This document shows, piece by piece, positions 28,417-62,003 of a stretch of DNA of 64,000 nucleotides (its first letter is position 1; each line of letters begins with the position of its first letter). The notes under the pieces are model-generated. The model saw only the letters and a program-made list of their open reading frames with translations, was not told the DNA's origin and ran no database searches. This DNA comes from Minisyncoccota bacterium (GTDB lineage Bacteria > Patescibacteriota > Minisyncoccia > Phycocordibacterales > SBAW01). The stretch covers positions 1,451-65,450 of the forward strand of contig DASZWM010000007.1 of NCBI GenBank assembly GCA_035546615.1, written 5' to 3'. The position numbers were made by a program, and so were the translations under genes.

Positions 28417-29238
28417 ATGCAAACCACGACCATCATCCAGCCCCGCAAGAAGCTGGGGCTCGCCGACCTGGCAGAGCTCTGGCGCTACCGCGAGCTGCTT
28501 TTTTTCTTTTCCTGGCGCGACCTTAAGGTGCGCTACAAGCAGACCGCTATCGGGGTGGCGTGGGCGGTGTTCCAGCCGCTGGCTACTATGCTTATCTTTA
28601 CCCTGTTCTTCGGGACGCTCCTCAAGGTCCCGTCCGACGGCATTCCCTACCCGATCTTCGTCTATACCGGCCTTCTGTTCTGGCAATTCTTTTCCTCGTC
28701 GCTTGGCGACGTCAGCGGCAGTCTGGTGTCCAACCAGTCCATCATCACCAAGGTCTACTTTCCCCGCCTCATACTGCCGCTTGCGGTCGTGGCGACCAAC
28801 TTCATCGACTTCTGCGTCGCCTCGGGCGTCCTGGTCGCGCTGATGGTCTATTACGGGTTCCTGCCCAACCTCATGGGCCTCTTCATACTGCCCGTCTTGC
28901 TGCTTATGACCTACTTCGCGGCGCTCGGCGGCGGCCTATTCCTTTCCGCGCTCAACGTGAAATACCGCGACGTGCGCTATATCCTTCCCTACTTCATGCA
29001 GATGCTCCTCTTCATCACGCCGGTCATCTACCCGGCCAGCATCGCGGGAAAGTACTCCTGGCTACTCGCCATAAACCCGATGACCGGCATCATCAAGGCC
29101 GCGCGCGGCGCTTTGCTCGGCACGGAGCCGGTCAACTGGGCGCTTTTGGGAATTTCTTCGCTCGCCATCCTCGTGCTCTTTGCCGTGGGACTTGTCGTGT
29201 TCAAGAAGACCGAGCGTTACTTTGCCGATATCGTATAA
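28417..29238 (+). CDS. wzm: ABC-2 type polysaccharide/O-antigen export permease
   Basis: 273 aa, six TM helices. RDLKVRYKQTAIGVAWAVFQPLATMLIFTLFFG. Confidence 0.9.
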   Translation: MQTTTIIQPRKKLGLADLAELWRYRELLFFFSWRDLKVRYKQTAIGVAWAVFQPLATMLIFTLFFGTLLKVPSDGIPYPIFVYTGLLFWQFFSSSLGDVSGSLVSNQSIITKVYFPRLILPLAVVATNFIDFCVASGVLVALMVYYGFLPNLMGLFILPVLLLMTYFAALGGGLFLSALNVKYRDVRYILPYFMQMLLFITPVIYPASIAGKYSWLLAINPMTGIIKAARGALLGTEPVNWALLGISSLAILVLFAVGLVVFKKTERYFADIV

Positions 29239-29260: not shown

Positions 29261-29681
29261 TGTCCATAAAGTCAAAAGTCTTTAATGCCTGTACAGTGAG
29301 AGAAGGGATATGACCATAGAACGATTCGAGGACATACTTGCATGGCAGAAAGCAAAAGAGTTGACGCTTTTGGTATATGCGGCATTCAAGGATAATAAGG
29401 ATTACGGCTTCAGGGACCAGATACAAAGGGCCTGCGTTTCAATAATGAATAATATCGCTGAAGGTTTTGAAAGAAAGGGCGATAAGGAATTCAAACAATT
29501 CTTATACATTGCCAAAGGGTCCTGCGGAGAAGTCAGATCTATGTTGGACATCGCCCTGGGCTTGGCGTATGTAGATCAAGAGCACTATACGCGCTACCGC
29601 GATCTATCCGTCGACACTTCTAAATTGCTGTCGGGATTCATCAAGACGCTTTAGACATTCAACATTCTGACTTTATGGACA
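29261..29681. repeat. IVS-like cassette: 14-bp perfect inverted repeats TGTCCATAAAGTCA (29261-29274) / TGACTTTATGGACA (29668-29681) flanking a four-helix-bundle gene inserted between wzm and wzt
   Basis: Exact reverse-complement arms. The right arm contains the wzt ATG (29675). The ORF inside belongs to the family typically found in 23S rRNA intervening sequences. Confidence 0.6.
29310..29654 (+). CDS. Four-helix-bundle protein of the 23S rRNA intervening-sequence protein family
   Basis: 114 aa. ERFEDILAWQKAKELTLLVY..IMNNIAEGFERKGDKEFKQFLYIAKGSCGEV. SD AAGGGA 4 nt upstream. Confidence 0.75.
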   Translation: MTIERFEDILAWQKAKELTLLVYAAFKDNKDYGFRDQIQRACVSIMNNIAEGFERKGDKEFKQFLYIAKGSCGEVRSMLDIALGLAYVDQEHYTRYRDLSVDTSKLLSGFIKTL

Positions 29682-30931
29682 ATTTACCCATCATCGAGAT
29701 ACAGGGCATCGGAAAGAAGTATGACATCAACCACCAGCGCGGCGGCTATATCGCCCTGCGCGATGTGCTTGCGTACATGCTCAAGCGGCCGTTCAGCTTC
29801 TTCAAGGCAAAGGCCAAGCGCGCCGTCGGGTTCGATAAAAAGGAGGAGTTCTGGGCCCTGCGCGACGTATCGTTCTCGGTCGGAAAAGGCGAGGTAGTGG
29901 GCGTCATCGGCCGCAACGGCGCGGGCAAGTCGACGCTTCTCAAGATCCTGACCGGCATCACGCCGCCCACCGAAGGCCGGGCCGTCATGCGCGGACGCGT
30001 GGCGTCGCTGCTTGAGGTCGGGACCGGCTTTCATCCGGAGCTGACCGGCCGCGAGAACATCTTCCTCAACGGAGCCATCATCGGCATGACGCGCCGCGAG
30101 ATAGCGCGCAAGTTCGACGATATCGTCGCGTTCTCCGGCATCGAAAAGTTTCTCGATACGCCGGTGAAGCATTACTCAAGCGGCATGTACGTGCGGCTCG
30201 CCTTTTCGGTGGCCGCGCATATGGAGCCGGACGTCCTTATCGTGGACGAAGTGCTCGCGGTCGGCGACGCGGAGTTCCAGAAAAAGTGCCTCGGCAAGAT
30301 GGAGGAGGTGACCCGCTCCGATGGCCGCACGATACTCTTCGTGAGCCACAACATGGCGGCGGTCGCGGCCCTATGCAAGAAGGTTGTCGTACTCGAGCAC
30401 GGTACGGTAGCTTTTTACGGGCCGACGCACGAGGCTATAGACTTTTATATGAATCGGTTTACATCCGCCGCCGGCGGCGCTCCTGCCAGCTTCTCGCTCG
30501 GACCCGTACGCTTGGACAATTTTACCCTCAACGGCGCTCCGGCGAACGCAATACCGCAGATTGCCTCCGGCGAGCCTCTTTCGATAGGTGTCCGCGTTGA
30601 GAGCACGGATCCCACTGGCAGGCTCAATATCGGCTATGGCATCCGCCGGCGCAGCGACGCATCGCTCATGGTGTTCTCGCACGCAGACCTCGAAAGTGCT
30701 AAATTACCTTCTGCCTCCGGCATCATAGAAGCCCGGTTCGATATGCCGCGGCTCGCGCCCGGCGACTACATCGTGGAATTCCAGGCCAAATACAATGACG
30801 CGGCGGGCATCCCGGAAAAAGAGATAGGCGGGTTCACGGTGCCTGAAACGCGGGCCTTCAAGGCCGAGCAGACGTTTAGGGACTTTCCCTCCGCCGTATT
30901 GGCCAACTCGAACTGGAACCATATTCGATAA
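29675..30931 (+). CDS. wzt: ABC transporter ATP-binding protein for polysaccharide export, with C-terminal carbohydrate-binding (Wzt_C-like) domain
   Basis: Walker A GRNGAGKSTLLK, signature LSGGMYVRLAF, Walker B LIVDEVLAVGD, plus ~170-aa C-terminal extension. Confidence 0.9.
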   Translation: MDNLPIIEIQGIGKKYDINHQRGGYIALRDVLAYMLKRPFSFFKAKAKRAVGFDKKEEFWALRDVSFSVGKGEVVGVIGRNGAGKSTLLKILTGITPPTEGRAVMRGRVASLLEVGTGFHPELTGRENIFLNGAIIGMTRREIARKFDDIVAFSGIEKFLDTPVKHYSSGMYVRLAFSVAAHMEPDVLIVDEVLAVGDAEFQKKCLGKMEEVTRSDGRTILFVSHNMAAVAALCKKVVVLEHGTVAFYGPTHEAIDFYMNRFTSAAGGAPASFSLGPVRLDNFTLNGAPANAIPQIASGEPLSIGVRVESTDPTGRLNIGYGIRRRSDASLMVFSHADLESAKLPSASGIIEARFDMPRLAPGDYIVEFQAKYNDAAGIPEKEIGGFTVPETRAFKAEQTFRDFPSAVLANSNWNHIR

Positions 30932-30990: not shown

Positions 30991-33519
30991 ATGAAAAAGG
31001 CTCTTCTTTCTTTCTCGAAAAAGCATTTCGATCCTTCTGGTGAGGAGCAAGTCTTTTATGCTTCGAGCATGAGCATTATGATTGAGGGATTATACAATGC
31101 TCTCCGGAAAGCCGATTATGCGGTCGACTACATAGACTCCTGTGAAAATCCCAAGGGTCCGGGTCCCTATGATTTGTTTGTCGGTAATCTTACACGATGG
31201 ATGGATATCGCTTCGCAAAGCGAGGCGACTGTAAAGATCATCTTTATGGAAACCAGCCATCCGGTTAATCGCAACGAGCGCATGAAAGCATTGCGTGCAA
31301 GGTGGAACGTGCCACGAGACGAGGAATTGCTCGACACATCGTATACCGCACTACGCGCGTTCGAGCTTGCGGATTACGTTATACAGGTGGGCAACGGAGT
31401 CAATATGGACGCTCTTGTTGCTAATGGAGTGCCCCGGGACAAAATTATCCCTCTCCACTATGGTCTTCCGTTAGCATGGAACAAACACGACATTCTTGCG
31501 CGCGGCGCGCTGAATAGATATGTTCATACGGCTGCGGAAATGGGATTACGCAAGGGGCTTCAGGAACTGATAGGGGCGTTCGGCTCCCCTACGTTCAAGA
31601 ATATGTATCTGACTCTTATCGGGAACGTACGCAAAAAGGAGAACTACGCTTTTTGGAACTCTCGACTGGAGACTCTTAAGAAGGAAAATCCTGGTGTTGT
31701 GCACCTAGGATTTATCGACGCATCGTCGAGAAGATACTCCGAAATTTTGGCCGAACACGCATGGTATCTGTTCCCGTCGGCAGAAGAAGGCGAACCGGGA
31801 ACCGTACTGGAAGCGATGACTCTTGGTTTAGTGCCAATCCTGACGCGAGATAGTGGGATAGATTTCGCGCTCGATGGGAACTTTGAGGCTACGTTCAAGG
31901 AATCTCTTGATAAAACGCTTGCCATATCGAAAGAACAGTGGAGCATTCTCTCAGAAAAGGCCCGGCACTATATAATATTATTCCACGATCACGCCCTTTT
32001 TGAGAATCGGCTGGCCGAATTGTTCGGCAAGATAGCCGGTGGCGCGCGCGATTTGCGTCCTACCGCGAGCATTATACTGACTGTCCACGACAAAGAAAAA
32101 CATATCGTACGGCTGCTACAGACCCTTCTTACGAATACTCGCTCCTATCCTCACTGGGACCTACATATTATCTATGATGGCTGCAGCGACGCGTCGCGGC
32201 AAGTAGCGCAGGAAACCCTGAAGGACTTCCCTGTTACGGTATACGAGTATGAAACGCCTGACGTATGGGAAGTAAAAGCAAACAATTACGGTCTCAAGCG
32301 GGCGCAAGGTAAATATTGCGTCATTCTACAGGACGACAACTTCATATATGAAGAAGGGTGGCTCGAAAAGATGCTCTCTTGGCTCGAGGAGCACCCGAAG
32401 GTCGGCATATTAGGAGGCTTGGCAGGCGTAAACTTCTTCCATCTCGACTCCTCCGATCCGAAGGGCCCGGGGGTGAACCGCTCCGCATTCGAGCTTCACC
32501 AGCGACTCGACCCAGCAGTACAGATTGAACTGCGGGATTTCATCTTCGAAGTTGACGCGGTCATGCGCGGGCCAATCATCCTTCGGAAAGCTCTGCTTGA
32601 GAAGCACGGTTACTTCGACGAAACGTACGCCCCGCTCTACAACGACGACATGGACTACTGCTTCCGAATGCGGAGCCTTGGCTATGGGGTATTCTGCTAC
32701 CCCATCAATGTGGTGAACGAGAGCCTTACGGTGGCACAGTATAAGAACCCGGTAAAGGACAAATTCTGGAAAGATACGGCGGAAAAGAACCAGAAACTAT
32801 TATATAGGCGCTGGAGCGGAGATATAGAGAAATATCATGCGATCCAGATAAAAGTACCGAAACCCACCCTTGCAGCAGTCGGGGCTTTCCGGAAACAGCA
32901 TACGGCGCGTCTGCCCAGGCTCAACATGTATGATATTCGCGTGCGGTCCCGCGCCGCAGCCCGCGCGATGTTCCTGCGCCTGCCCGCTTCTTTGGTGCGC
33001 GGCCTGATTCAAACGCTAAGATACGCGGGAGGTCGCGGAATCGCGGAGAAGCTCCGCGTGCACTATTTCGAGGGTAAGACTATTCCGTGGCGGCTCGCAA
33101 ACGGCGATGCGAACCTGCGGGTCGAGTACCCACTCGCTTCCTCCTCGCTCATATACAGCATCGGCGAGAAAAACGCGCAATGGGCGGAAGTTATGCGGCG
33201 CCGGTACGGATGTATGGTGCGTACACTTGCCTCCTGGCCTGCCGTGACGGATGTGGGAAAAGACCTCGAAGCGCGCATACGAGGGCAGGGGGATATAGAT
33301 CTGCTGAGTCTCTACATGGATGGTGGAGAATACGAGCTCCTGGAAATGCTGCTTGATAGCGGCACGGTGCAGAGTATTAGGAATATCCAGATAAAATTCG
33401 ACGACAGCGCCCCCGACGCCATATCGCGCGTGCGTGCTATCCGCAAGCGGCTACGCGAGACGCACGCACCGACCTACCAATATGATTTCGTGTGGGAGAA
33501 TTGGGAAAGAAAGAAGTAA
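30991..33519 (+). CDS. Tri-domain glycan-biosynthesis enzyme: N-terminal GT4-like, central GT2 (DxD), C-terminal domain with weak FkbM-methyltransferase-like similarity
   Basis: 842 aa. GT2 block SIILTVHDKEKHIVRLLQTLL..DLHIIYDGCSDASRQ..YCVILQDDNFIYEEGW. C-terminus DIDLLSLYMDGGEYELLEML. Confidence 0.75.
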   Translation: MKKALLSFSKKHFDPSGEEQVFYASSMSIMIEGLYNALRKADYAVDYIDSCENPKGPGPYDLFVGNLTRWMDIASQSEATVKIIFMETSHPVNRNERMKALRARWNVPRDEELLDTSYTALRAFELADYVIQVGNGVNMDALVANGVPRDKIIPLHYGLPLAWNKHDILARGALNRYVHTAAEMGLRKGLQELIGAFGSPTFKNMYLTLIGNVRKKENYAFWNSRLETLKKENPGVVHLGFIDASSRRYSEILAEHAWYLFPSAEEGEPGTVLEAMTLGLVPILTRDSGIDFALDGNFEATFKESLDKTLAISKEQWSILSEKARHYIILFHDHALFENRLAELFGKIAGGARDLRPTASIILTVHDKEKHIVRLLQTLLTNTRSYPHWDLHIIYDGCSDASRQVAQETLKDFPVTVYEYETPDVWEVKANNYGLKRAQGKYCVILQDDNFIYEEGWLEKMLSWLEEHPKVGILGGLAGVNFFHLDSSDPKGPGVNRSAFELHQRLDPAVQIELRDFIFEVDAVMRGPIILRKALLEKHGYFDETYAPLYNDDMDYCFRMRSLGYGVFCYPINVVNESLTVAQYKNPVKDKFWKDTAEKNQKLLYRRWSGDIEKYHAIQIKVPKPTLAAVGAFRKQHTARLPRLNMYDIRVRSRAAARAMFLRLPASLVRGLIQTLRYAGGRGIAEKLRVHYFEGKTIPWRLANGDANLRVEYPLASSSLIYSIGEKNAQWAEVMRRRYGCMVRTLASWPAVTDVGKDLEARIRGQGDIDLLSLYMDGGEYELLEMLLDSGTVQSIRNIQIKFDDSAPDAISRVRAIRKRLRETHAPTYQYDFVWENWERKK

Positions 33520-33541
33520 TGCAATACAGAATTATCCTGGT

Positions 33542-35050
33542 ATGCGCAAATATCTATCTCCAAAAACATATCTACGCTTTATACGATACAAAATTCGCAA
33601 ACTGAAAAAGGAACCCCTGCCTTCCTCGTCACGGCCCGTGTTCTGGATAGGTATCGGCGCTTGCGGTTTCTTGCGCACCTACAACTTGCTCACGTACAGC
33701 GGACAAACATCGGTATATTTTAAAAGCCGCAATAAACTTCAGAACCATAACGTGCATCTGCATCCCGAGCGGGAACTCATGTGGGAGCGCGGCGAGGACG
33801 AGGGCGAACGGGTGCGCGCGTATTTCAAGCACGAAGGCGTATACGACCACCACATAGCGCCCTACACCATCCGGTACGCCGAAGAAATACTCGCACACTT
33901 CAGCGGCGAGGCCGTGTTCCTCTGCCTTCGCTCGCGGAAGTCCGTCCGCTCGCTCTGGCTGCAGTGGGGATACCGCAACCCGCTCATGGCCGACCGCGCG
34001 CGCAAGAACCGCTATCCGGTCGAGTTCTATCCGGACTTGTCCGGTACCGCCAAAGACGGCAGGGAGGCGGTCGAGCGGTACAATGCTATTTATGACGAGC
34101 TTGCGGACTCGCTCGCAGCGGCTCACCCCGATACTTTTTACGTCGTAGATGCGGACCGGTTCTTTAGCGATGAGGAATATTTCAACTCGATCAACGGGCG
34201 GTTCGGCTTGAGGCTGGCGTTCAAAGCCCAGGCGCCGGATTGCGATAGCGGCGGCGTAACGACAACGCTCGACGGAGGGCTGGGCAACAACCTGTTCCAA
34301 ATGGCGGAGCCGGTTGCCTTCTGCGCCGAGCACGGCCTCCCCGCCCCGCAATTTTCAACATGGCAGATGCCGGACTTTCCGCCCTCCTACCGCAGTGATC
34401 GTTTTTTGGGCGGGCATACGGGGTCGCAGGAAGAACTGAAGCGCACCTTCCCGGGAGTTGCATGGCTTCCGCCTTCCATAGCCTCTTTCGACCATAAATT
34501 CATGGTAACGGATATGTTCTCCTTCGAGGATGCGCATCCGCAGCGCGAAGCCATACTCAAGCATCTCGGCCCCTCTGAAGAGATGAGGCAGGAACTCGCG
34601 CAAAAGTATCCCGCTCTGGTCAAAGAAAATACGGTTTCCCTCCACTACCGGACCGGAGGCCTCAAGGCGGATACGCGCTCTTTCAGCGGGCTGAGTACCG
34701 AGTGGTATAAAAAGGTATTCGCTGACTATTTCCCGAAAGGGTACGACTGTTTCGTGTTCTCCGACAATAACGAGGCCGCCAAGAAGCTTATTGCGGAACT
34801 GGCAGGCAACAGCGAGAATACGTACCACCTTATAGAAGAAGGCGTCTTTCCGTCGCTCATTATGATGAGCATGTGCAGGAACCACATACTCAGCAACTCA
34901 ACGCTCAGCTTTTGGGGAGCATATCTCGACCCCCGCCAGCCTGCCGGTAAGACCATCCTCCATCCCAGCTTTGAGACCTACCATTCCGAGCCCCATATCG
35001 AGTGCCGCATGATTCCGTATCCGGAATGGATACGGTACGATACGGCGTAA
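33542..35050 (+). CDS. Two-domain protein: N-terminal domain of unknown function plus C-terminal GT11-family (alpha-1,2-fucosyltransferase-like) glycosyltransferase
   Basis: GT11 motifs LDGGLGNNLFQMAEPVAF and HILSNSTLSFWGAYL. Start placed at ATG 33542 (MRKYLSPKTY) because the 5' part of the track ORF overlaps the previous gene. Confidence 0.75.
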   Translation: MRKYLSPKTYLRFIRYKIRKLKKEPLPSSSRPVFWIGIGACGFLRTYNLLTYSGQTSVYFKSRNKLQNHNVHLHPERELMWERGEDEGERVRAYFKHEGVYDHHIAPYTIRYAEEILAHFSGEAVFLCLRSRKSVRSLWLQWGYRNPLMADRARKNRYPVEFYPDLSGTAKDGREAVERYNAIYDELADSLAAAHPDTFYVVDADRFFSDEEYFNSINGRFGLRLAFKAQAPDCDSGGVTTTLDGGLGNNLFQMAEPVAFCAEHGLPAPQFSTWQMPDFPPSYRSDRFLGGHTGSQEELKRTFPGVAWLPPSIASFDHKFMVTDMFSFEDAHPQREAILKHLGPSEEMRQELAQKYPALVKENTVSLHYRTGGLKADTRSFSGLSTEWYKKVFADYFPKGYDCFVFSDNNEAAKKLIAELAGNSENTYHLIEEGVFPSLIMMSMCRNHILSNSTLSFWGAYLDPRQPAGKTILHPSFETYHSEPHIECRMIPYPEWIRYDTA

Positions 35051-35053
35051 GCT

Positions 35054-35773
35054 ATGGAGCGCTTCAAAAAATATTTGGTTCCGAGAAACTACCTGCACCG
35101 CCTGCGGCTTATACTGGGGATGGATTACAAGGCAAGCTATGCGCAAAATGGCGAGGACCTGCTTATAGACTTTATCTTCCGCGCTCTCAAGATAGACTGC
35201 CCTTCATATATTGATATCGGCGCACACGATCCCCTACATAAGAGCAATACTGTTCGCCTGTATAAACAAGGGTCCAGGGGCATCAACATCGAGGCAAATC
35301 CCGTCTTGTATAAGTGCTTCCCGCGCAAACGCCCAGGAGACATTAATCTCAATATCGGCATTGCTCCTCATGCCGGCACGCTGGATTTTTACGTCATGAA
35401 CAATCCCGGATTAAGCACCTTTTCAAAAGAAGAGGCCGAACGCCTGGTCCGGGACCATGGGTTTGCGATCGCCAGCGTGTATCCGGTCCGGGTGCGGACG
35501 GTTGCGGACGTGATAGAGGAATATTGCGGCGGCACGTGCCTGGACCTGCTCACTATAGACACGGAAGGGCTGGACGAGGATATTCTGCGATCCGTCGATT
35601 TCTCCAAATATCGGCCCAAGGTCATATGCGTTGAAACGATATCCTTTTCCAAAACGCGCGGCGGCGTTAAGGACGAAAGACTTATAAGCTTCCTGAAAGA
35701 ACAGGGATACCTGCTGTTGGCGGATACGTATATAAATTCCCTTTTCGTCGATGCAAGCGTATGGAAAGAATAG
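35054..35773 (+). CDS. FkbM-family methyltransferase
   Basis: YIDIGAHDPLHKSNTVRLYKQG..LLTIDTEGLDEDILRS. Confidence 0.8.
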   Translation: MERFKKYLVPRNYLHRLRLILGMDYKASYAQNGEDLLIDFIFRALKIDCPSYIDIGAHDPLHKSNTVRLYKQGSRGINIEANPVLYKCFPRKRPGDINLNIGIAPHAGTLDFYVMNNPGLSTFSKEEAERLVRDHGFAIASVYPVRVRTVADVIEEYCGGTCLDLLTIDTEGLDEDILRSVDFSKYRPKVICVETISFSKTRGGVKDERLISFLKEQGYLLLADTYINSLFVDASVWKE

Positions 35774-36759
35774 ACGCGCGCTACGAAGCTCAGGTATATC
35801 GCGGGCCGCGCATCGCGGGGCTTTTGCACGCCATGCTCGGGAATGCGCCATTCGCATGGTACCGCCGCGCGCGCAACGCGGCGATCGCCCCGTTCCTTAG
35901 GAAGCCGGCCCTTGCCACGGCCGTGTACAAGAACGGCCTGCGCTTCTGGGACGCCCGCTCCTACCGAAAGGCCCTGGCCTACTATCTCGCCAAACGCCAG
36001 ACGTTTGAGGAATACAGCGAGGACCGGTCGAATGAGCCGAAGGAATATCTCGATCTCGATTTCTGCGCGTACTTCCAATGCTACAAGAACAGACGCGCCA
36101 CCCGCGAAGCGCTGCGTTCGTTCCGGCGGCAGTACCCTGCAGTACCCGTGCTGCTCCTCTCCGACGGCGGCGACGACTTCAGCGAACTGGCGCGCGAATT
36201 CGGCTGCGAATACGAGCACGACCCTAAAAATATCGGTTACTGGCCGTGCAAGGACATGCTGCTATGGTTCAAGCGGCTTGCGCTCGCCTGCGAGCGGTTC
36301 GGCAAAGAGTGGGTGCTTATTCTTGAGGACGACGTGCGTACGCGCGACAGGATAAGCAAGTACCCGCACGCGCACCTTTCCGGCCAAGGCGGCAGCCGGG
36401 GCGCGCGGATAACGAAACAGCTGTCGCCTGCGGCGGTGGCGTATATACAAGAGAAATATCCGGATGCCGGAGCATTCGGCATCTCGGGCTGCGGCGGCTC
36501 CATATTCCATCGCGCGTCTTTTATGGACTGCTACGCAAAGCTGACGCCGGAGGATCTTGCGCGATGGTCCATGCTCGATCCCGGCTCTGAAGGAGCCACT
36601 GATATCGCGCTTACATTCCTGTTCCTCGCGAACGGATACACGGTGCGCCGCTGGCTGGACTTAAGCCACGACAGTATCGGCAATTGGGGGCCGGGCAGCG
36701 CGTTCGATCATCAGTTCAAGGAGTTTTACGGGCCAAAATCGGAGGGATCGCCGGTATGA
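35761..36759 (+). CDS. Hypothetical protein, possible GT-A-fold glycosyltransferase
   Basis: VPVLLLSDGGDDFSEL and WVLILEDDVRT are DxD-like. Low-confidence assignment. Confidence 0.5.
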   Translation: MERIDARYEAQVYRGPRIAGLLHAMLGNAPFAWYRRARNAAIAPFLRKPALATAVYKNGLRFWDARSYRKALAYYLAKRQTFEEYSEDRSNEPKEYLDLDFCAYFQCYKNRRATREALRSFRRQYPAVPVLLLSDGGDDFSELAREFGCEYEHDPKNIGYWPCKDMLLWFKRLALACERFGKEWVLILEDDVRTRDRISKYPHAHLSGQGGSRGARITKQLSPAAVAYIQEKYPDAGAFGISGCGGSIFHRASFMDCYAKLTPEDLARWSMLDPGSEGATDIALTFLFLANGYTVRRWLDLSHDSIGNWGPGSAFDHQFKEFYGPKSEGSPV

Positions 36760-37658
36760 TCATCGTCAAGATACACGGCGGCCTCGGCAATCAGCTGTTC
36801 CAATACGCGCTTGGAAAGGCGGTGGCGGATCGCAACAATATGCCGCTCATGCTCGACATCTCGGGCTACGGCCGCGTGGCCGACCGCTCCTACGGACTCT
36901 CCCCATTTTCCGTTTCCGCCGCAATCGCGTCGCCCGGTGATATTGCCACCCTCCTGCCGCCCGCGGATGGGAGCTTTCTCTCCCGCGTACGCAGAAAAGC
37001 ATTCTACGGGGTGCAGCAGCTCCTGCCGATTGAGAAGCGGGCATACGTGCGAGAGCCGCATTTCCATTTTGCGCCGGAGATATTGCGCGCCGGCAAGAAT
37101 GCCTATCTGGACGGCTATTGGCAGTCGCAAAAGTACTTCGCGGACATCGGGCCCGAGATCCGCAAACAGTTCGCTCTGGCTGCGCCGTTTGGCCCCGCCG
37201 CGGCAGCCATCGCTAGCGATATCGCAAAAGACGCACGGCTGGGCCGCGCCGTGTCGGTGCATGTGCGGCGCGGCGATTACGTGACGAATCCCAACGTAAC
37301 CGCAATGAACGGCGTGTGTCCGCCGGAATATTACCGCGCTGCGGCGCACGCCATGGCGAACCGCCTGGGGCAGCCGCCCGTATATTACGTATTTTCCGAC
37401 GACATCGAGTGGGTGCGCGAGCATATGCCCTTTCTCTCGCCGGCCGTGTTCGTATCCCGCCCCGGCATAGCTCCGCACGAGGACATTGCGCTCATGAGCC
37501 GCTGCTCGGCGCATATCCTTGCCAACAGCACCTTCAGCTGGTGGGGCGCGTGGCTTGATCCGAATCCTGCTAAGATAGTCATTGCGCCCAAAGAATGGTT
37601 CCGGGACCGGAGCGTCAATACCAAGGACGTGCTGCCGCCTGAGTGGATACAGCTATAG
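36756..37658 (+). CDS. GT11-family glycosyltransferase (alpha-1,2-fucosyltransferase-like), copy A
   Basis: MIIVKIHGGLGNQLFQYALGKAVA ... ILANSTFSWWGAWL. ATGA overlap with the upstream gene. Confidence 0.85.
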   Translation: MIIVKIHGGLGNQLFQYALGKAVADRNNMPLMLDISGYGRVADRSYGLSPFSVSAAIASPGDIATLLPPADGSFLSRVRRKAFYGVQQLLPIEKRAYVREPHFHFAPEILRAGKNAYLDGYWQSQKYFADIGPEIRKQFALAAPFGPAAAAIASDIAKDARLGRAVSVHVRRGDYVTNPNVTAMNGVCPPEYYRAAAHAMANRLGQPPVYYVFSDDIEWVREHMPFLSPAVFVSRPGIAPHEDIALMSRCSAHILANSTFSWWGAWLDPNPAKIVIAPKEWFRDRSVNTKDVLPPEWIQL

Positions 37659-37669
37659 GCGCAAACGAC

Positions 37670-38569
37670 ATGATAATCATCAAATTACAGCACGGCCTCG
37701 GCAATCAGCTGTTCCAGTATGCGCTCGGCAAAAAGCTCGCGCTTCTGCACGGCACCGAACTGAAGCTCGACATATCGACCTACACGCAGCGCATCGGCTA
37801 TCGCCATTTCGGGCTCGAGCCTTTTGCGATTACCGCGCCCGTCGCGGCACCGGAGGACTTCAGGCGCATACGCGTGCCCCCTCCTACCCAGGACCTGCTG
37901 TCGCGCATCAGGCGCAAGGCGCTGCGCATGCGGGAGCAGGGCACACCACTCAATGAGAGGCGTTTTATTACGGAACCCCGGCCGACATTCATCCCCGAAG
38001 TGCTTCAGGCGCGCGATAATGCATACCTCGTAGGCGATTGGCAGAGCGAAAAGTACTTCAAGGACATCGCGCCCGTCATACGCCGCGAATTCGCGCTTAA
38101 AGAGCCCTTGCAGGGCGCCGCTCTGCGCGTGGCCGAGCAGATCAGGCAATCGCACGGCACGCCGGTGTCGCTTCATGTGCGGCGCGGTGACAGCGTGAGC
38201 AACCCGAAGTCCATACAGAAGTTCGGCACGATGCCGCTCTCCTATTATCTTGAGGCGGCGCGGATGATGCGGCAGAAGGTGCCCGACGCCGTGTTTTTCG
38301 TATTCTCGGACGACATTCTCTGGGCGCACGAACATCTGGCAGAGCTTGCCCCCATAGTGTTCGCGTCAGATCCCGAGATAAAGGATTACGAGGACCTGAC
38401 GCTCATGAGCCTATGCGCCCACCATATCCTTCCCAACAGCACGTTCAGCTGGTGGAGCGCCTGGCTCAATCCCAGCCCTCATAAGCTGGTTATCGCTCCC
38501 AAGAAGTATTTCCAAGACCCGTCCATGGACACCAGCGACCTTATGCCGCCTGAGTGGATACGGCTGTAA
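37670..38569 (+). CDS. GT11-family glycosyltransferase (alpha-1,2-fucosyltransferase-like), copy B (tandem paralogue)
   Basis: MIIIKLQHGLGNQLFQYALGKKLA ... ILPNSTFSWWSAWL. Shared C-terminal ...LMPPEWIRL/LPPEWIQL. Confidence 0.85.
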   Translation: MIIIKLQHGLGNQLFQYALGKKLALLHGTELKLDISTYTQRIGYRHFGLEPFAITAPVAAPEDFRRIRVPPPTQDLLSRIRRKALRMREQGTPLNERRFITEPRPTFIPEVLQARDNAYLVGDWQSEKYFKDIAPVIRREFALKEPLQGAALRVAEQIRQSHGTPVSLHVRRGDSVSNPKSIQKFGTMPLSYYLEAARMMRQKVPDAVFFVFSDDILWAHEHLAELAPIVFASDPEIKDYEDLTLMSLCAHHILPNSTFSWWSAWLNPSPHKLVIAPKKYFQDPSMDTSDLMPPEWIRL

Positions 38570-38599: not shown

Positions 38600-39397
38600 A
38601 TGCAATCATCATTTGCCCAAGTCCCCGTCGATGCCGTCCGCGATTTCTGGAACCGCCGTCCGTGCAACATCCGCCACTCCCCCAGCCCCGTCGGTACAAA
38701 AGCCTATTTTGACGAGGTGGAGGCACGCAAATACAAAGTCGAGCCGCACATTCCCGGTTTTGCGGACTTTCCGCGCTGGAAGGGGAAAAAAGTGCTCGAA
38801 ATAGGGGGCGGCATCGGGACCGACTCCGTCAATTTCGCGCGAGCCGGAGCGAAGCTTACCGTGACCGAGCTGTCGGAGGAAAGCCTCAAGATATGCCAGG
38901 AGCGCTTCAAGGTATTCGGCCTGCAGGCATCGTTCTATACCGGCGACGCGGAGCGCCTTTCGGACATTGTCCCGGTCGAGAAGTACGACCTCGTATACTC
39001 CTTCGGCGTCATTCATCACTCGCCGCATCCGGAGCGCATCATCGAGGAAATAAAGAAGTACATGGGTCCGGACTCGGAGCTGCGCATCATGCTCTACGCC
39101 AAATACTCCACCAAGAACCTGCTTATTCTCCTAGGCCTGATGCAGCCGGAGGCCCAGACGGGGTGCCCAATCGCCTACACCTACAGCGGCCGCGACGTGC
39201 GCAAGCTTCTGAAGGGCTTCGACGTCGTCTCCATCAAGAAAGACCATATATTCTCCTACCAGATAGAGCCGTACAAGCGCTACGAGTACAAGAAGTCGTT
39301 CCCCTGGAACCTCACTCCTGAGCCGATATTCCACATGTTCGAGCGGCTCTTCGGCTGGCACCTTCTCATCACCGCGAAGCTGCCGAAGCATGGCTAA
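38600..39397 (+). CDS. Class I SAM-dependent methyltransferase
   Basis: [32 protein letters not shown] ... [12 protein letters not shown]. Confidence 0.75.
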
Positions 39398-40310
39398 GAA
39401 GAGAGGCTGTATCGTATATCTCGTACGCACATCGCAGGAGGATCTGGACATGCTCAATAAGTCCCTTGGACTCGTTGAGCGCAACCTCCTGCCCTCAATG
39501 CAGGAGAAGCCGGACATACTTCTTTTCCATGAACCGTCGTTCGGTCCGGAATTCAAGAGCAAGGTCCGTCCGGTGACGGCGGGCGCCGTCCTGTTTCAGG
39601 AGATCGAGTTCCGCCTCCCTCCGTATCCGCCGCGCATAGCGGACGCCATACCGGAGTACGTTCCCCACCCCACACACGGTAACGGTCCGCTTGGATGGGG
39701 GCACCCGGGATTCGGCATGGGATACCGGTTCATGTGCGACTTTTTCGCCGGCTCCATGTACGACCAGGCCGTCTTGCAGGGCTACGAATACTATTTGCGC
39801 CTCGATACCGACTCGTTCATCCTATCGCCCGTCAGGTACGACATGTTCGAGCGCATGCAGTCATCCGGATGCGAATACGGCTTCATAGAAACGGCCCTGC
39901 AGCAGGACGAGCCTGCGGTCATTGAAGGCCTTTGGAGCGAGACGAAGCGCTGGATCGACAGCAACGCAATACGCACGCAGGTGCCGATAGCGGCGCTGCC
40001 GGAGGGCCGGATGTTCTATACCAATTTCGAGCTTGGGAAGGTCGCTTCGTTCTCGCCGGGTTCCGACTATTACCGCTTCTATTCGTTCATACGGGAAACC
40101 GGCAATATATTCATCCGCCGCTGGGGCGACGCGCCCATCAAGTATCTCGGCGTGAACCTGTTCATACGGCCCGAAGCCGTACAGGGCGCGCGCGGCTTCC
40201 GATACCAGCACGGCGCCATATTCGATCTGCCCGGCTACCACAAGCCGTTTCCCTGGAAAGATCCAAGGCCCCGGCGCATCGCGGGCTGGCTCAAGAGCCT
40301 GCTCTCGTAG
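39390..40310 (+). CDS. GT15-like (Kre2/Mnt1-type alpha-1,2-mannosyltransferase-like) glycosyltransferase
   Basis: [56 protein letters not shown] parallels Kre2 YRNMCRFNSGFF..YDYYFRVEPNVKYFCD..KKYGF..NFEIGDM..ERWGDAPVHS. Confidence 0.7.
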
Positions 40311-40323
40311 CTACGCAAAGCGC

Positions 40324-40950
40324 TTACTTCTTTAAAAAAACAAAGTAGCCGCTCGTTTGCTTGGAGGAGTGTTTTTTGAAAAGCAGGTCGAGCAGAAAGC
40401 CGAGGTCTTCGAACACGCGCCAGCGTCCCAATGGGCTCAGCCGCACCAGCGTTTCCAAAGGGCCTCGTACCGGCTGCATGGCAATGCTGCCGAACGGCTT
40501 GAAGATATGCCTTAGCGAATCTTCGGTAAAGCGCCAATAATCGCCGTAGTACCCCTTCTCGGCATGATAATAGTAGAGAAAAGGAACGTAGACGAAGCAG
40601 TATCCCCCGGGCTTCAGCACGCGGTGCATTTCGCTCGCCGCCTTGATCGGGTTCTCGACGTGTTCAAGCACGGCATTGCATACGACAGCCTCCTGCGTGT
40701 CGCTGCCGAACGGCAGGTCCTGAACGTCACCCACGATATCCGGATTGAAGTCCGGCACGTAATCCAATATCTTATACGATGTCTTTTGCTCCTCCATCAG
40801 CGCGCGTATCCACTTATGCGATGCATCAAGGCGGTTGGAACGGTCGCGCGCGATGCGCAGGCCTCCGCCGATATCGACGACTTCATGTTTCTCCCGAAGG
40901 ATGCGCCCTATGCTTTCCTTATAAAAGACGTCCCAAGGGCGTGTAAGCAT
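40324..40950 (-). CDS. Class I SAM-dependent methyltransferase (Methyltransf_11-like)
   Basis: Start at ATG 40950 (MLTRPWDV). VVDIGGGLRIA..VVCNAVLEHVENP..LKPGGYCFV. The 5' extension in the track ORF is junk. Confidence 0.75.
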   Translation of the reverse strand: MLTRPWDVFYKESIGRILREKHEVVDIGGGLRIARDRSNRLDASHKWIRALMEEQKTSYKILDYVPDFNPDIVGDVQDLPFGSDTQEAVVCNAVLEHVENPIKAASEMHRVLKPGGYCFVYVPFLYYYHAEKGYYGDYWRFTEDSLRHIFKPFGSIAMQPVRGPLETLVRLSPLGRWRVFEDLGFLLDLLFKKHSSKQTSGYFVFLKK

Positions 40951-40951
40951 G

Positions 40952-41659
40952 TTACTTTTGTAGCACGTATACCTTCTCGTGCGCCAGGCCGGGCGCAACA
41001 GGCAGCATACACGCCTCAGCGAGCCGTTGAAGAACGCGCGCCAGGGCCGGGAATCTCCATATGAACGGGACGAAAAATCCGCACGGTACCGTTTGCACGA
41101 TCGTGAACAAGGAGCGCATATACTCTTCATACTCCCGGTACGAAAGCATGTTCTCAAATCCTTCCTCCCCACCCCGCATCCGCGCATGGAGCGATCCCTG
41201 CCCGGCTATGGAACAGATGTACACGCCGCCCGGCCGCAAGGCGCCGTGCGCAGCCTTGAGGTCTTCCTGCCACGGCGCATAGTTGAGCACGCCCACCTCA
41301 AGCACCACGTCAAAGCCCCCGTGCAGAAGGGCGCCTTCGCGCACGAAGTACGCAATGGGGCGGGCGCCGTTTGCCGCCTTCGCCGCCGCAACCATGTCGG
41401 GCGCGATGTCGTTCCCTTCCACCCGGCCGAGCTTCGCGCTAAAAGCGTCATATGCCGCCCGGAGAACGACCCCATCAGCGATCCCCACTTCCAGAAGCGC
41501 CGCAGGCGCGGGGCGATTCTTGAGAAATCTTCCAAGCATGCCGAGGACGAGCTTCAGGCGGCGTTTGAAGAAATACTGCACGTAATCGGTCTCCCGTTCG
41601 GGATACCGCTTGCGCGAGTAATTGACGCTTTCTTGGTTGTAATAGTCGGTGTCTTTCAT
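40952..41659 (-). CDS. Class I SAM-dependent methyltransferase
   Basis: Start MKDTDYYN at 41659 (ATGA overlap with the stop of the upstream GT4). LLEVGIADGVVL..LRPGGVYICS. Confidence 0.75.
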   Translation of the reverse strand: MKDTDYYNQESVNYSRKRYPERETDYVQYFFKRRLKLVLGMLGRFLKNRPAPAALLEVGIADGVVLRAAYDAFSAKLGRVEGNDIAPDMVAAAKAANGARPIAYFVREGALLHGGFDVVLEVGVLNYAPWQEDLKAAHGALRPGGVYICSIAGQGSLHARMRGGEEGFENMLSYREYEEYMRSLFTIVQTVPCGFFVPFIWRFPALARVLQRLAEACMLPVAPGLAHEKVYVLQK

Positions 41660-42759
41660 ACTGCTTTGAGTACTGAGGCCGCCCTTTCCGCCCATGAAAA
41701 TCCTTTCGCTTTTTCCTGCGCCGCCGAGGCGCGTTCGCGCGCGCCGGCGCGATCCGCAAGCGCCCTTGCTATCGCCTCCGCCAGCGCCTCCGGGTCGTCG
41801 GGCGCGGCAAAGTACGCCGTCTCGCCGTCAAGCACTTCGCGGATGCTCGGGAGATCAGAAGCCACTATCGGCTTCCCCGCCGCCATGTATTCGAACATCT
41901 TGAGCGGCGACGTATACAATCGCGAAATATCCTCCTGGGCGCTATTGGGCAGTACAAGAACGTCAGCCGTGCTCAAATGCCCGGGCAACTCCGCATGCGG
42001 CCGCCAGCCCACGATACGCACGTTCTTTTGCGCGCCGTAGGCGGCCTTGAATCGTCCCAGCTCCTGGTCCGTACCTCCTATGAATACGAAAAATGCGTCG
42101 GGCAGATACGAGGCCGCTTGCGCCAGCGCGTTGGCGCCCTTCCATGCATACAAATGGCCCGTATACATGATGAGCGGCACGTCCGCATGGATGCCGAGCT
42201 CCTGCCTGAGCATGCTCGGCGGAGCCCCCGCAAACAGGGCGTAATCGGCCGCATCAGGAAGAAGCAGGAGCTTGTTCTCCGGAACGCCCCGCTCCCTGAA
42301 AAAGTCCGCCAGCCCCTGTGAAATAACAGCCAGGAACCGGCAGACGCGGGAGGCCCGCCGAACGGCGAAATTCCAGCGACCCTCATGCGCTTCGAAAACC
42401 ATAGGCAGTCTCAGGAAGAAGCTCAAAAGCCAGATTGCCAGCTCATCGCGGCTGTACAGCAGTCCCTCCTTTTCGTGGCGCAAGCGCCATGCGCATGCAA
42501 CGCTGAAGGTCAGGCGGTGCAGCCAGAAGCCCGCCTTTCCCTGCACGCTCGTATCAAGCGATGGAAGCGCTTGTATCCTGAAACTCGGTTCGACTCCGTA
42601 ATACGCGAAGGGGTCTGCCGTAATGCTGTTCGGGCGCCTGGGGACCAGCAGTTCTACGTCCGCGCCCTGCGCGGCGAGCGCCTCGCACATCTTCATGACC
42701 TGGAGCCCGTGGGCTTTTTCCGTCGGCAGGCGGATGGCGGCGATATAGAAGAGTTTCAT
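41656..42759 (-). CDS. GT4-family glycosyltransferase
   Basis: MKLFYIAAIRLPTEKAHGLQVMKMCEALA..MYTGHLYAWKGANALAQ..EYMAAGKPIVASDLPSIREV. Confidence 0.8.
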   Translation of the reverse strand: MKLFYIAAIRLPTEKAHGLQVMKMCEALAAQGADVELLVPRRPNSITADPFAYYGVEPSFRIQALPSLDTSVQGKAGFWLHRLTFSVACAWRLRHEKEGLLYSRDELAIWLLSFFLRLPMVFEAHEGRWNFAVRRASRVCRFLAVISQGLADFFRERGVPENKLLLLPDAADYALFAGAPPSMLRQELGIHADVPLIMYTGHLYAWKGANALAQAASYLPDAFFVFIGGTDQELGRFKAAYGAQKNVRIVGWRPHAELPGHLSTADVLVLPNSAQEDISRLYTSPLKMFEYMAAGKPIVASDLPSIREVLDGETAYFAAPDDPEALAEAIARALADRAGARERASAAQEKAKGFSWAERAASVLKAV

Positions 42760-49424: not shown

Positions 49425-50441
49425 TTAAAAGGCCAGGAGAAGAATAGCATCGATAACGACTATGGCCGCCGCAAGCACCAAAAACGGCCGCCAGTAGCGC
49501 GCAAGAAACTCGCGCGGGTCGGAGATATTCTTATACAAAGAGAACCACAGCTCGCGCCATGCGACGAAGCCCGACATGTGCGGCGTCTGCCATGCGGAGA
49601 ACCACTCCGGCAGCGCCGGATGCCGCACCGAAAGCGCCTCATGCGCCGCGTTGGACGCGTACACGCCGCGAAGAAGGTCGACGTTCTTCCCCTGCTCGCC
49701 GAACCACTTCACGAACGCCCGCGTATCCTTGGGAAGGCAGTGTCCACCGAACGCGCGCCCGTAGCGGGTGTACCCTTCCCCGCCGAGCACGAAGTTAAGA
49801 ACGCGGCTGATGGAATCGACATCCTGGGGAGTCGAGGGTTCCGCTATCGCGTCGCCGAACTCGTTGACGAAGGCGATGCGCGTCGCGTTCCAGAGATTTG
49901 AAAGATATTTCACGAAAGCGGCCTCCCGCGGAGTGCCGCCGAACTGGAGCGGCGTCGCGCGCTGCCACGCGTCGAAGAACGCCGGCCGCGAGGTTTTCGT
50001 GTCGCGGATACCGAGCACGAAGAAGTGCGGCGAGAGGCATTCCTCGACTGCCGTTTTCTCGTGCAGGAATTCCGGCATGTAGAAATCAAAGTTGAGGCTT
50101 TCGAGCAGGTCGGGGATGACCGTGGAGCGCAGCACCACAGCGCCCTTCGCATCTTTCAGCGATTCAAGCGCCGCGCGTATGGCGCTTATGTCCTGCGTGC
50201 CGTCCTCCGCCACCTTGTCGCCGACGCATACGATGTACGCCGTGTCCGCCGCATCGCGCTCAAGAACACCCGAAAGCCGCGTAATGCGCCCGTACGCATC
50301 CGCGTACGTATCTGTATAGTGCAGCGACGGATTGCCCGGGTCAAAATAGGAAACATGGAATCCCATGCGCGAAAGCGCCAGGGCGTTCGCCTGCCCTACC
50401 CATCCGAAGCCCACTATCACAACCGTGCCGCCCGTTTGCAT
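49425..50441 (-). CDS. Truncated nucleotide-sugar-dehydrogenase-like protein with C-terminal TM anchor
   Basis: N-terminal Rossmann VVIVGFGWVGQANALA and catalytic GGHCLPKDT. It lacks the usual C-terminal UDP-binding domain and ends in a hydrophobic helix, FLVLAAAIVVIDAILLLAF. Confidence 0.65.
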   Translation of the reverse strand: MQTGGTVVIVGFGWVGQANALALSRMGFHVSYFDPGNPSLHYTDTYADAYGRITRLSGVLERDAADTAYIVCVGDKVAEDGTQDISAIRAALESLKDAKGAVVLRSTVIPDLLESLNFDFYMPEFLHEKTAVEECLSPHFFVLGIRDTKTSRPAFFDAWQRATPLQFGGTPREAAFVKYLSNLWNATRIAFVNEFGDAIAEPSTPQDVDSISRVLNFVLGGEGYTRYGRAFGGHCLPKDTRAFVKWFGEQGKNVDLLRGVYASNAAHEALSVRHPALPEWFSAWQTPHMSGFVAWRELWFSLYKNISDPREFLARYWRPFLVLAAAIVVIDAILLLAF

Positions 50442-61006: not shown

Positions 61007-61093
61007 TGGTGCCCAGGAGAGGACTTGAACCTCCATTCCCTTGCGGGAACTACGACCTGAACGTAGCGCGTCTACCAATTTCGCCACCTGGGC
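61007..61093 (-). tRNA. tRNA-Leu (anticodon CAG), 87 nt with long variable arm and encoded CCA
   Basis: RC reads GCCCAGGTGGCGAAATTGGTAGACGCGCTACGTTCAGGTCGTAGTTCCCGCAAGGGAATGGAGGTTCAAGTCCTCTCCTGGGCACCA. Acceptor is 7 bp, anticodon loop TTCAGGT. Confidence 0.9.
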
Positions 61094-61745: not shown

Positions 61746-61964
61746 GTATACTCCCGCGAGTTCTTACTATACTGAAGCAATAATGTATACCATATCATTT
61801 TGCCAAAAATCGGGTATTTTTACAAAAAACATGGGGGAGCCGGCTGGGCTGCCGGACTCCCCCAATTCCGTCGCCCGGCCCCGGGCTACGGAAAAACTTT
61901 CTCGAATATCCACCTGAATGGCTTCGAGTAAAAACACTGTACAAGCAAAGCTTAGAAAATAAAA

Positions 61965-62003
61965 GATGTGGATAAAAAGGGGCCGGTCGTTTCCAACCGG
62001 CCC
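61965..62003 (-). terminator. Intrinsic terminator after the cold-shock gene
   Basis: gggccgg-tcgtttccaa-ccggccc followed on the minus strand by CUUUUUAUCC. Confidence 0.55.

Follow-up and report, generated by a model that had tools for sequence, protein, structure and literature searches.

Glycosyltransferase family 15 (GT15) is treated in the literature as the Kre2/Mnt1 family of Golgi enzymes (PMC7712326, PMC4546622). Among plants, animals and fungi its Pfam domain, PF01793, is confined to fungi (PMC5225481), and its absence from humans makes the family an antifungal target (PMC7712326). Saccharomyces cerevisiae Kre2p/Mnt1p (structures 1S4N, 1S4O and 1S4P in the PDB) and Candida albicans Mnt1 (CaMnt1) act on protein O- and N-glycans in the Golgi lumen and are type II Golgi proteins with an N-terminal transmembrane segment and a stem (PMC2200012). 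Aspergillus fumigatus CmsA/Ktr4 (7BOO and 7BOP), which is likewise Golgi-lumenal and membrane-anchored, is the core-mannan synthase of galactomannan and builds a polysaccharide chain (PMC7712326). In the searchable literature we found GT15 described from fungi alone, and no paper that deals with it in bacteria, phages or other viruses; in trypanosome papers "GT15" is a gene name and not the CAZy family. The Escherichia coli O8/O9a polymannan is built by the GT4 mannosyltransferases WbdA, WbdB and WbdC, terminated by the methyltransferase WbdD and exported by Wzm/Wzt, the Wzt protein carrying a cap-binding C-terminal domain. Here we describe a GT15 gene at positions 39390-40310 (+ strand) of a 64,000-nucleotide stretch of contig DASZWM010000007.1 from a Minisyncoccota bacterium (the whole analyzed stretch is referred to as the window). 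We consider its product, with a probability of roughly 70%, to be a GDP-mannose-dependent retaining mannosyltransferase of a GT15 branch that is native to prokaryotes and phages. The distribution of this branch is surprising; the protein itself is a clear family member encoded in an ordinary bacterial polysaccharide operon.

Family membership, predicted fold and active site

The gene is a single open reading frame (ORF) of 306 codons that runs from ATG to TAG. A preliminary description of the locus had assigned its product to GT15 on the basis of five motifs, and all five are indeed found in the order in which they occur in Kre2p, each of them at a single place when the whole 64-kb window is translated in six frames: YRFMCDF (residues 112-118), YYLRLDTDSF (134-143), GCEYGF (160-165), NFELGK (212-217) and RWGDAPI (244-250). 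GCEYGF can be retained as a family motif only in part, since its YGF is common to the fungal enzymes but the remainder is not (Kre2p has EKVYGF). When the protein was searched with profile hidden Markov models, PF01793 (Glyco_transf_15) was the sole Pfam match, with an E-value of 2.3e-26 and a score of 93.4 bits against a curated cut-off of 25 bits, covering profile positions 54-323 of 325. No other glycosyltransferase family matched, and a scan of NCBIfam, NCBI's naming library for prokaryotic proteins, returned no matching model. A sequence search of the PDB likewise matched GT15 structures alone (CmsA/Ktr4 7boo, 2.5e-19; S. cerevisiae Ktr4p 5a07, 8e-16; Kre2p 1s4n, 2e-15). Identity to these fungal structures is about 22%, and the match to Kre2p strengthens to an E-value of 1.2e-36 when a profile of 26 close homologues is used.

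An AlphaFold2 model calculated from a 26-homologue alignment has a mean predicted local distance difference test score (pLDDT) of 91.9 and a predicted template-modelling score (pTM) of 0.86. In a Foldseek comparison of this model with the PDB, ranks 1-11 are all GT15 enzymes, with E-values from 3e-18 to 1e-15 and template-modelling (TM) scores of 0.71-0.76. The next family is GT8, represented by the xyloside xylosyltransferase XXYLT1 at 3e-8, a gap of ten orders of magnitude in E-value. CmsA/Ktr4 is the best PDB match (structure E-value 2.7e-18, TM-score 0.75), and the Kre2p structures give TM-scores of 0.71-0.72. The predicted model is thus a GT-A fold that is superposable on Kre2p, Ktr4p and CmsA. 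By every sequence and structure criterion that we checked, the window protein is a member of GT15, and the profile match, the predicted fold and the active-site residues described below all uphold the original assignment. No new mechanism is implied, and the domain is one that automated pipelines already recognize.

Residues were placed in Kre2p numbering by adding 94 to the chain index of the HMMER alignment. This numbering reproduces Tyr220, Glu247, Asp361 and His388 of Kre2p, the residues reported by Lobsanov et al. in 2004. It also agrees with the CaMnt1 and Ktr4p papers, and the alignment pairs R130, Y220, E247, E329, D361 and H388 of Kre2p with R13, Y112, D139, E214, D247 and H274 of the window protein. 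The functions given for the corresponding residues of Ktr4p and CaMnt1 follow published work (PMC4546622, PMC11077754). The features of the protein are as follows.

39420-39428, + strand: L11-V12-R13, end of the nucleotide-binding strand, equivalent to Leu140-Val141-Arg142 of Ktr4p and, for R13, to Arg130 of Kre2p
39525-39533, + strand: F46-H47-E48, at the position of the fungal L-N-D, where Asn172 and Asp173 of Ktr4p hydrogen-bond guanine N1/N2
39720-39743, + strand: G-Y112-R-F-M115-C-D-F, in which Y112 is equivalent to Tyr220 of Kre2p and Tyr209 of CaMnt1, a donor and acceptor contact
39789-39818, + strand: Y-Y-L-R137-L-D139-T-D141-S-F, in which D139 is at the Mn2+ ligand Glu247 of Kre2p (Glu262 of Ktr4p)
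40017-40040, + strand: Y-T211-N212-F-E214-L-G-K, equivalent to the donor-mannose contacts Ser315 and Asn316 of CaMnt1
40119-40139, + strand: R-W-G-D247-A248-P-I, in which D247 is equivalent to Asp361 of Kre2p and Asp350 of CaMnt1, which binds the donor mannose O6
40203-40214, + strand: Y-Q-H274-G, in which H274 is at the second Mn2+ ligand (His388 of Kre2p, His411 of Ktr4p, His377 of CaMnt1)
40272-40307, + strand: basic amphipathic C-terminal tail, predicted helix 292-305, net charge +5, hydrophobic moment (muH) 0.68

In a set of 312 non-fungal homologues, conservation is 90-100% in the columns of the catalytic and mannose-binding residues. The exception is R13, whose equivalent in the fungal enzymes (Arg130 of Kre2p, Arg142 of Ktr4p) has been reported to stack on guanine; it is invariant in our alignment A1, but is found in only about 58% of the 312 sequences. 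The column of E48 holds glutamate in 268 of them, an Asp-to-Glu change relative to fungi. Tyrosine at Y112 and methionine at M115 (equivalent to Met238 in the guanine pocket of Ktr4p) are each present in 311, and arginine at R137, equivalent to the donor-mannose residue Arg234 of CaMnt1, is present in all 312. Aspartate occupies the D247 column in 310 sequences, next to A248 (Ala351 of CaMnt1), and histidine occupies the H274 column in 285. The window protein therefore has all of the GDP- and mannose-binding residues R13, E48, Y112, R137, T211/N212 and D247/A248, and its D139 and H274 would supply the acidic residue and C-terminal histidine of a Mn2+ site in a variation on the fungal motif. 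Conservation of the catalytic and mannose columns argues for an active enzyme that uses a GDP-hexose with a free 6-OH, and the donor would most simply be GDP-mannose. The Tyr, Arg, Asp and His residues and the order of the motifs are the same as in Kre2p and CaMnt1, from which we infer a GDP-mannose- and Mn2+-dependent retaining mechanism.

An anchor-less DxD branch and the origin of the gene

The window protein differs from the fungal enzymes in three respects, one of which, its place at the end of a Wzm/Wzt glycan operon, is described further below. First, it does not have type II Golgi topology, which is a trait of the characterized members and not a CAZy criterion for the family. A hydropathy scan of the protein found no transmembrane segment or signal peptide; its best 19-residue Kyte-Doolittle value is 0.53, far below that of a transmembrane helix, and the catalytic domain begins at residue 4. 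The lack of a hydrophobic segment, together with the matching position of the N-terminus in homologues, indicates that the protein has no type II anchor or stem and would be cytoplasmic. Second, it has a canonical D-T-D motif, whereas the three fungal structures have E-P-D, E-P-N or E-P-K. In Kre2p and CaMnt1 this motif is E-P-D and the metal is held by the Glu alone, and in CmsA it is E-P-K; the Ktr4p paper stresses the absence of a true DxD from the Kre2 family of yeast (PMC4546622). Among the non-fungal sequences the first DxD position is Asp in 311 of 312, and E-P-x occurs in 0 of 312. Judged by sequence, the window protein belongs to an uncharacterized, anchor-less DxD subfamily of the known GT15 family.

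Three architectures are seen overall: anchor-less DTD, DSD or DCD proteins from bacteria, an archaeon and phages; "DDD" proteins; and the fungal type II proteins with E-P-x. Many of the "DDD" proteins, which include loci in metagenome-assembled genomes (MAGs) of giant viruses, have an N-terminal transmembrane segment and a 60-140-residue stem. The giant-virus and unassigned type II members of this group (GVMAG contigs; A0A5J6VLB3) share a PF01793-like domain and a DxD rather than an EPx motif with the window protein, to which they are 23-35% identical, but unlike it many are anchored. Among P0136, P0141, P0145, P0146, P0152 and other matches of our cluster search, some GT15 domains of the DxD type form part of larger proteins, 500-1,500 residues in length, and others (about 32 cluster representatives with the DDD motif) carry the transmembrane segment and stem, as eukaryotic Golgi enzymes do. 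Tails resembling the basic C-terminal tail of the window protein, with charges of +4 to +8, are confined to the bacterial-type subclade, and a shuffle test of the tail is suggestive at most; it might serve as an in-plane membrane-association helix that substitutes for a transmembrane helix.

We next consider how widely such proteins occur. An exhaustive HMMER scan of cluster representatives at 50% identity, 1.84 billion in number, gave 1,949 matches at E<=1e-3, of which 821 are at <=1e-10 and 49 at <=1e-30, so that the relatives of the window protein are a small family. A word-indexed search of 5.8 billion proteins gave 176 matches, nearly all of 250-310 residues and from metagenome assemblies, and most are unnamed or carry the JGI name "alpha 1,2-mannosyltransferase"; PF01793 was found in 120 of 120 close homologues among the matches listed. 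In 185,579 prokaryotic species (one genome each), searched by two strict peptide patterns and tblastn, we found two loci, a lower bound because the patterns miss divergent bacterial GT15s. One is in a MAG of Minisyncoccia (Minisyncoccota, of the candidate phyla radiation (CPR)/Patescibacteria) at 62% identity, and the other in an archaeal MAG at 37%. With this count and no NCBIfam model, the gene does not appear typical of many bacterial genomes. Searches by tblastn found no GT15 match among 72,556 plasmids or 50,697 GenBank phage records, and PHROGs has no family for it. BFVD holds one GT15-like viral protein (A0A5J6VLB3, from a Megaviridae environmental sample). IMG/VR holds 74 viral contigs with GT15, about 20 of them at 48-53% identity. 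The flanks of the gene on contigs L005 and L079-81 are 71-75% identical in nucleotide sequence to the Synechococcus myophages DSL-LC02/03 and carry PstS, hli and lysozyme genes, indicating that these contigs are uncultured T4-like cyanophages, whose GT15 is about 52% identical to the window protein. The cyanophage contigs L005-L025 and L079-L081 contain a glycan island with epimerase, GT11, GT2, DUF5672, GT15 and GT25 genes.

The exact 306-residue product has no match in the contig index, and nothing else specific would point to an assembly chimera, a contaminant or an inactive relic. An independent SRA-derived contig (P0001/L085) encodes an identical protein, there called from a later start; the start and stop of the gene overlap the adjoining genes cleanly, its synteny is repeated in five other contigs, and the catalytic residues are all intact and invariant. 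We therefore reject such an artifact, to which we give next to no weight, and treat the gene as genuine.

Neighbor joining of 315 domain sequences, with the root set at the three fungal structures, places the window protein with P0001 (identical), P0002-P0009, L003 and L002. Bootstrapping of 165 sequences (200 replicates) supports the grouping of the window protein with the Minisyncoccia MAG gene L003 and with P0004, which lies on a syntenic metagenomic contig, at 92%. Thus the phylogeny is firm in placing the gene beside a Minisyncoccia homologue, but the order of bacterial, phage and eukaryote-type branches has support of 0-40%, and for this reason we claim no sister relation between bacteria and phages and take no direction of transfer from the tree.

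The composition of the gene is that of its surroundings. Its GC content is 0.591 and its GC content at third codon positions (GC3) is 0.762, compared with a mean GC3 of 0.727 (standard deviation 0.073) for 45 genes of the window, and by synonymous-codon distance to a housekeeping reference it ranks 22nd of 45. The gene is thus ordinary for the window in GC, GC3 and codon usage, and shows no compositional sign of recent transfer. The homologous loci have 26-52% GC as opposed to 59% here, and each fits its own surroundings. A lower-GC patch does exist at 30991-35773 (+ strand; GC 0.50-0.55, GC3 0.59-0.67 as opposed to about 0.73-0.8 elsewhere); it spans a GT4-GT2 fusion gene, the gene of a 538-residue GT11-like protein and an FkbM gene, and may be a newer arrival than the GT15 gene.

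These observations bear on the suggestion, made in the preliminary description, that the gene was acquired horizontally, and on its more specific form of a recent transfer from a fungus or other eukaryote. Such a transfer would accord with a literature that knows GT15 from fungi alone and with a Pfam model built mostly of fungal sequences. Against it, composition and codon usage are indistinguishable from those of housekeeping genes, the protein lacks the anchor and stem and has DTD instead of EPx, its identity to the fungal structures is low, and it groups with the Minisyncoccia gene in 92% of bootstrap replicates. Moreover, its nearest relatives, at 57-72% identity, lie on prokaryote-type contigs with conserved synteny, and the gene is translationally coupled to its neighbor. 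Recent transfer from a eukaryote is thus effectively refuted, with only a very slight probability left to it. The other suggestion, an under-sampled bacterial branch, is favored in a broader form, as the branch is not purely bacterial and includes phages, giant-virus MAGs and an archaeon. We favor the reading of the GT15 gene as a resident one, from an anchor-less and under-sampled DxD branch that CPR-type bacteria share with an archaeon and with uncultured phages, T4-like cyanophages included.

The glycan operon and its relatives

The window is bacterial chromosome, with a 16S rRNA 3' end, two tRNAs and genes for GatB, Obg, SecA, DsbD, MurB, MurC and MurD. The GT15 gene is the final gene of a + strand glycan operon, whose genes and neighbors are listed below.

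21590-23869, - strand: Wzy_C protein (O-antigen-ligase/O-oligosaccharyltransferase family), 759 residues (PF04932, 5e-22)
27398-28393, + strand: GDP-mannose 3,5-epimerase (GME) homologue (Arabidopsis thaliana GME 2c59, E-value 1e-97)
28417-29238, + strand: Wzm-like ATP-binding cassette (ABC)-2 permease with four hydrophobic segments (PF01061, 7e-17)
29675-30931, + strand: Wzt-like ABC ATPase (PF00005, 4e-22)
30991-33519, + strand: GT4-GT2 fusion glycosyltransferase, 842 residues (Pfam)
33434-35050, + strand: 538-residue protein with a C-terminal GT11-like domain, whose homologues lie directly 5' of GT15 in nine phage-type loci
35054-35773, + strand: FkbM-type methyltransferase (Pfam)
35761-36759, + strand: ORF of no assigned product
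36684-37658, + strand: GT11 glycosyltransferase, paralogue a (PF01531, 9e-36)
37643-38569, + strand: GT11 glycosyltransferase (fucosyl/L-galactosyl-type), paralogue b (PF01531, 8e-29)
38600-39397, + strand: class I S-adenosylmethionine (SAM) methyltransferase (Pfam), with an 8-nt overlap between its stop and the start of GT15 (ATGGCTAA)
40324-41187 and 40952-41695, - strand: two convergent SAM methyltransferase ORFs (Pfam), with homologues in locus L002
41656-43890, - strand: two GT4 glycosyltransferases

The overlap of the methyltransferase and GT15 genes implies translational coupling. An ABC-2 permease and an ATPase lie inside the glycosyltransferase cluster, and the layout is that of an ABC-transporter-dependent polysaccharide pathway. 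Pathways of this type assemble their chain from nucleotide sugars inside the cytoplasm, as would suit a GT15 that has no anchor and needs cytosolic GDP-mannose. The likeness to E. coli O8/O9a would extend to cytoplasmic assembly from GDP-mannose, export by Wzm/Wzt and the presence of methyltransferases, and Wzt may have a C-terminal carbohydrate-binding domain here too. The systems differ in that the mannosyltransferases of O8/O9a are GT4 enzymes of GT-B fold, and in that the Wzt_C match in the window is below threshold. Five methyltransferases are present, none tied to chain termination, and no WbdD-like kinase or coiled-coil terminator was identified in the window. CmsA, which resembles the window enzyme in its presumed role in building a polysaccharide chain, differs in its eukaryotic host as well as in its anchor and motif. 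The Wzy_C protein, with eleven hydrophobic segments and C-terminal tetratricopeptide repeats, may act as a ligase of the O-antigen type or, like PglL, as a protein O-oligosaccharyltransferase.

The epimerase homologue would consume GDP-mannose and yield GDP-L-galactose/gulose. Its presence together with GT15 led the preliminary description to speak of a eukaryote-like enzyme set; the homologue is real, but the label is overstated, as bacteria are already known to have both GT11 enzymes and GDP-mannose 3,5-epimerase (PMC6678494) and cultured cyanophages have epimerase homologues, as described below. The operon holds two full-length tandem GT11 paralogues and a third GT11-like domain, and no clear GMD or fucose synthase was seen in the window. 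Given the lack of a clear GDP-fucose pathway there, GDP-L-galactose is a plausible donor for the GT11 enzymes. Of the convergent methyltransferase ORFs, which overlap by 236 nt as listed, that at 40324-41187 has a Pfam domain beginning only near residue 97, so that its true start is probably an internal Met. Beyond this convergent block there are more GT4s, a short-chain dehydrogenase/reductase-type epimerase and sugar dehydrogenases.

Parts of this arrangement recur elsewhere. The order GT11-methyltransferase-GT15 recurs in three other contigs; in two of these, L002 and L086, the methyltransferase/GT15 junctions overlap and the convergent methyltransferase/GT4 block is shared as well. Two more contigs, L082 and L003 (of the Minisyncoccia MAG), have the methyltransferase-GT15 pair. 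In L001 and L002, and also in the phage-type loci L006, L023 and L079-81, an epimerase homologue (64-69% identity) is encoded no more than a few kb from GT15. In the phage clade, the gene after GT15 encodes a GT25 enzyme in 19 loci, and the one before it encodes either a 234-residue unknown or a homologue of the 538-residue GT11-like protein; the phage copies have neither the C-terminal tail nor the upstream methyltransferase. Among cultured cyanomyophages, 37 records (S-SSM7, P-TIM68 and others) contain an epimerase homologue at 64-68% identity, annotated as a generic "nucleotide-sugar epimerase" and located inside known carbohydrate islands, which suggests that these phages may encode GDP-L-galactose synthesis. 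Thus the T4-like islands of S-SSM7 and P-TIM68 have the epimerase, methyltransferases and glycosyltransferases in common with the window but lack GT15, while uncultured relatives carry it in the same kind of island.

This sharing raises the alternative that the GT15, epimerase and GT11 genes travel together as a mobile glycan cassette swapped between phages and bacteria, the bacterial copy being derived from a phage or the phage copies from CPR-like bacteria. IMG/VR viral contigs carry about 120 of the cluster representatives, at 48-54% identity, and the contigs with myophage-like flanks (L005, L079-81) hold epimerase (64-69%), GT11 and GT11x homologues beside it. However, no phage genes flank the cluster within the window, its composition is native, and the methyltransferase-GT15 synteny and the C-terminal tail are specific to the bacterial subclade and absent from the phage copies. 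The branch order of the tree has low deep support, and an identity of 52% would make any exchange ancient. We therefore regard a mobile cassette as rather improbable, although it is the likeliest of the alternatives, and retain the reading of a resident gene.

Several other features of the window were noted. Two genes of the UDP-glucose/GDP-mannose dehydrogenase family lie at 24218-25582 and 49425-50441 (both - strand); in the latter most of the N-terminal NAD-binding domain is missing from the Pfam match; this may be a truncated gene, or its start may be wrongly placed. A lamin-tail-domain protein, a TrwB/TraG-like coupling ATPase and a PGA_cap protein are encoded in a row at 51585-55264 (- strand), adjoining the glycan cluster, and this gene set is frequent in CPR-type genomes. 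A giant ORF of at least 3,102 codons at 3-9308 (- strand) runs off the left end of the window; it contains LVIVD repeats (PF08309, 1e-49), probably encodes a huge surface protein, and accounts for the strong GC skew and the "shadow" ORFs of the first 9 kb. At the other end, 61007-64000 (- strand) contains the 16S rRNA 3' end (63616-64000), a spacer of about 616 nt and tRNA-Ile(GAT) (62926-62999). No 23S rRNA follows this tRNA; in its place come the gene of a cold-shock-domain protein, an ORF with a LAGLIDADG domain (61050-61745) that overlaps tRNA-Leu(CAG) (61007-61093) at its end, and murD/murC, so that the rRNA genes appear unlinked.

Proposed function and its meaning

The proposed function has a GDP-mannose context in its favor, since an epimerase homologue is present in the operon and accompanies GT15 in bacterial- and phage-type loci. 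Several points weigh against the proposal. No ManB or ManC for GDP-mannose synthesis was found by Pfam scans of the window ORFs. No initiating phosphoglycosyl transferase was seen among them either, there being no PF00953 or PF02397 match and no polytopic candidate; such an enzyme may lie outside the window. The Wzt_C domain (PF14524) on the Wzt-like ATPase scores 29.6 bits, below the cut-off of 30.4. The idea of a native branch is weakened by the strict patterns behind the count of two species loci and by the 0-40% support of the deeper nodes. As to chemistry, GT15 also includes the mannosyl-phosphate transferases Ktr6/Mnn6 (PMC4546622), and GDP-L-galactose/gulose, at least, is a further GDP-sugar made by the operon and a possible donor.

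These last points lead to a second alternative, in which fold and family are the same and the chemistry is another, the donor being GDP-L-galactose or GDP-L-gulose, or the reaction a mannosyl-phosphate transfer like that of Ktr6/Mnn6. The tight linkage of the epimerase homologue to GT15 across loci and an identity of about 22% to characterized enzymes would allow it. On the other hand, the CaMnt1 donor-mannose residues Arg234, Asp350, Tyr209, Ser315, Asn316 and Ala351 are all conserved in the window protein, and three to four GT11s, the usual L-fucose/L-galactose transferases, are already in the locus. We consider a different chemistry unlikely and prefer mannosyl transfer from GDP-mannose.

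On that preferred reading, the product would be a soluble or peripheral cytoplasmic GT-A enzyme of GT15. It would bind GDP-mannose by way of a Mn2+ ion whose ligands are His274 and Asp139, the leading Asp of the D-T-D; Glu48 and Arg13 would read the guanine, and Arg137, Tyr112, Thr211/Asn212 and Asp247/Ala248 the mannose. Mannose would be transferred with retention to give an alpha linkage, most likely alpha-1,2 as in Kre2p and CmsA, although we hold this particular linkage only tentatively, at somewhat less than an even chance. The acceptor would be a sugar of a lipid-linked glycan under construction on the cytoplasmic side of the membrane. O-Methylation of the same part of that glycan may be the task of the coupled methyltransferase, and the GT11 enzymes would add L-galactose or fucose. 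Given an operon with an epimerase, Wzm/Wzt, GT11s, a GT4-GT2 fusion and methyltransferases, the product is probably an O-methylated polymer of mannose and L-galactose (or fucose), which would be exported by Wzm/Wzt and then attached outside the cell by the nearby Wzy_C-family protein.

A wider scenario can be drawn, which we regard as speculative and, taken as a whole, improbable. In it, the anchor-less DxD GT15s of CPR bacteria, archaea and cyanophages would be ancestral, and the fungal Golgi Kre2/Mnt1/KTR enzymes would descend from a prokaryotic or viral gene, possibly via the transmembrane-anchored "DDD" forms of giant viruses. The epimerase, GT11 and GT15 would then be a mobile cassette for the same mannose/L-galactose surface glycan in cyanophages and episymbiotic bacteria.

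For the family, a soluble GT15 branch with a canonical DxD would offer easily expressed, disulfide- and anchor-free models for studies of mechanism and for engineering, and the existence of a prokaryotic and phage branch is a data point on the origin of the Golgi mannosyltransferases. For the organisms that carry it, the branch would be a marker for an unstudied mannose/L-galactose glycan of CPR bacteria and uncultured cyanophages.

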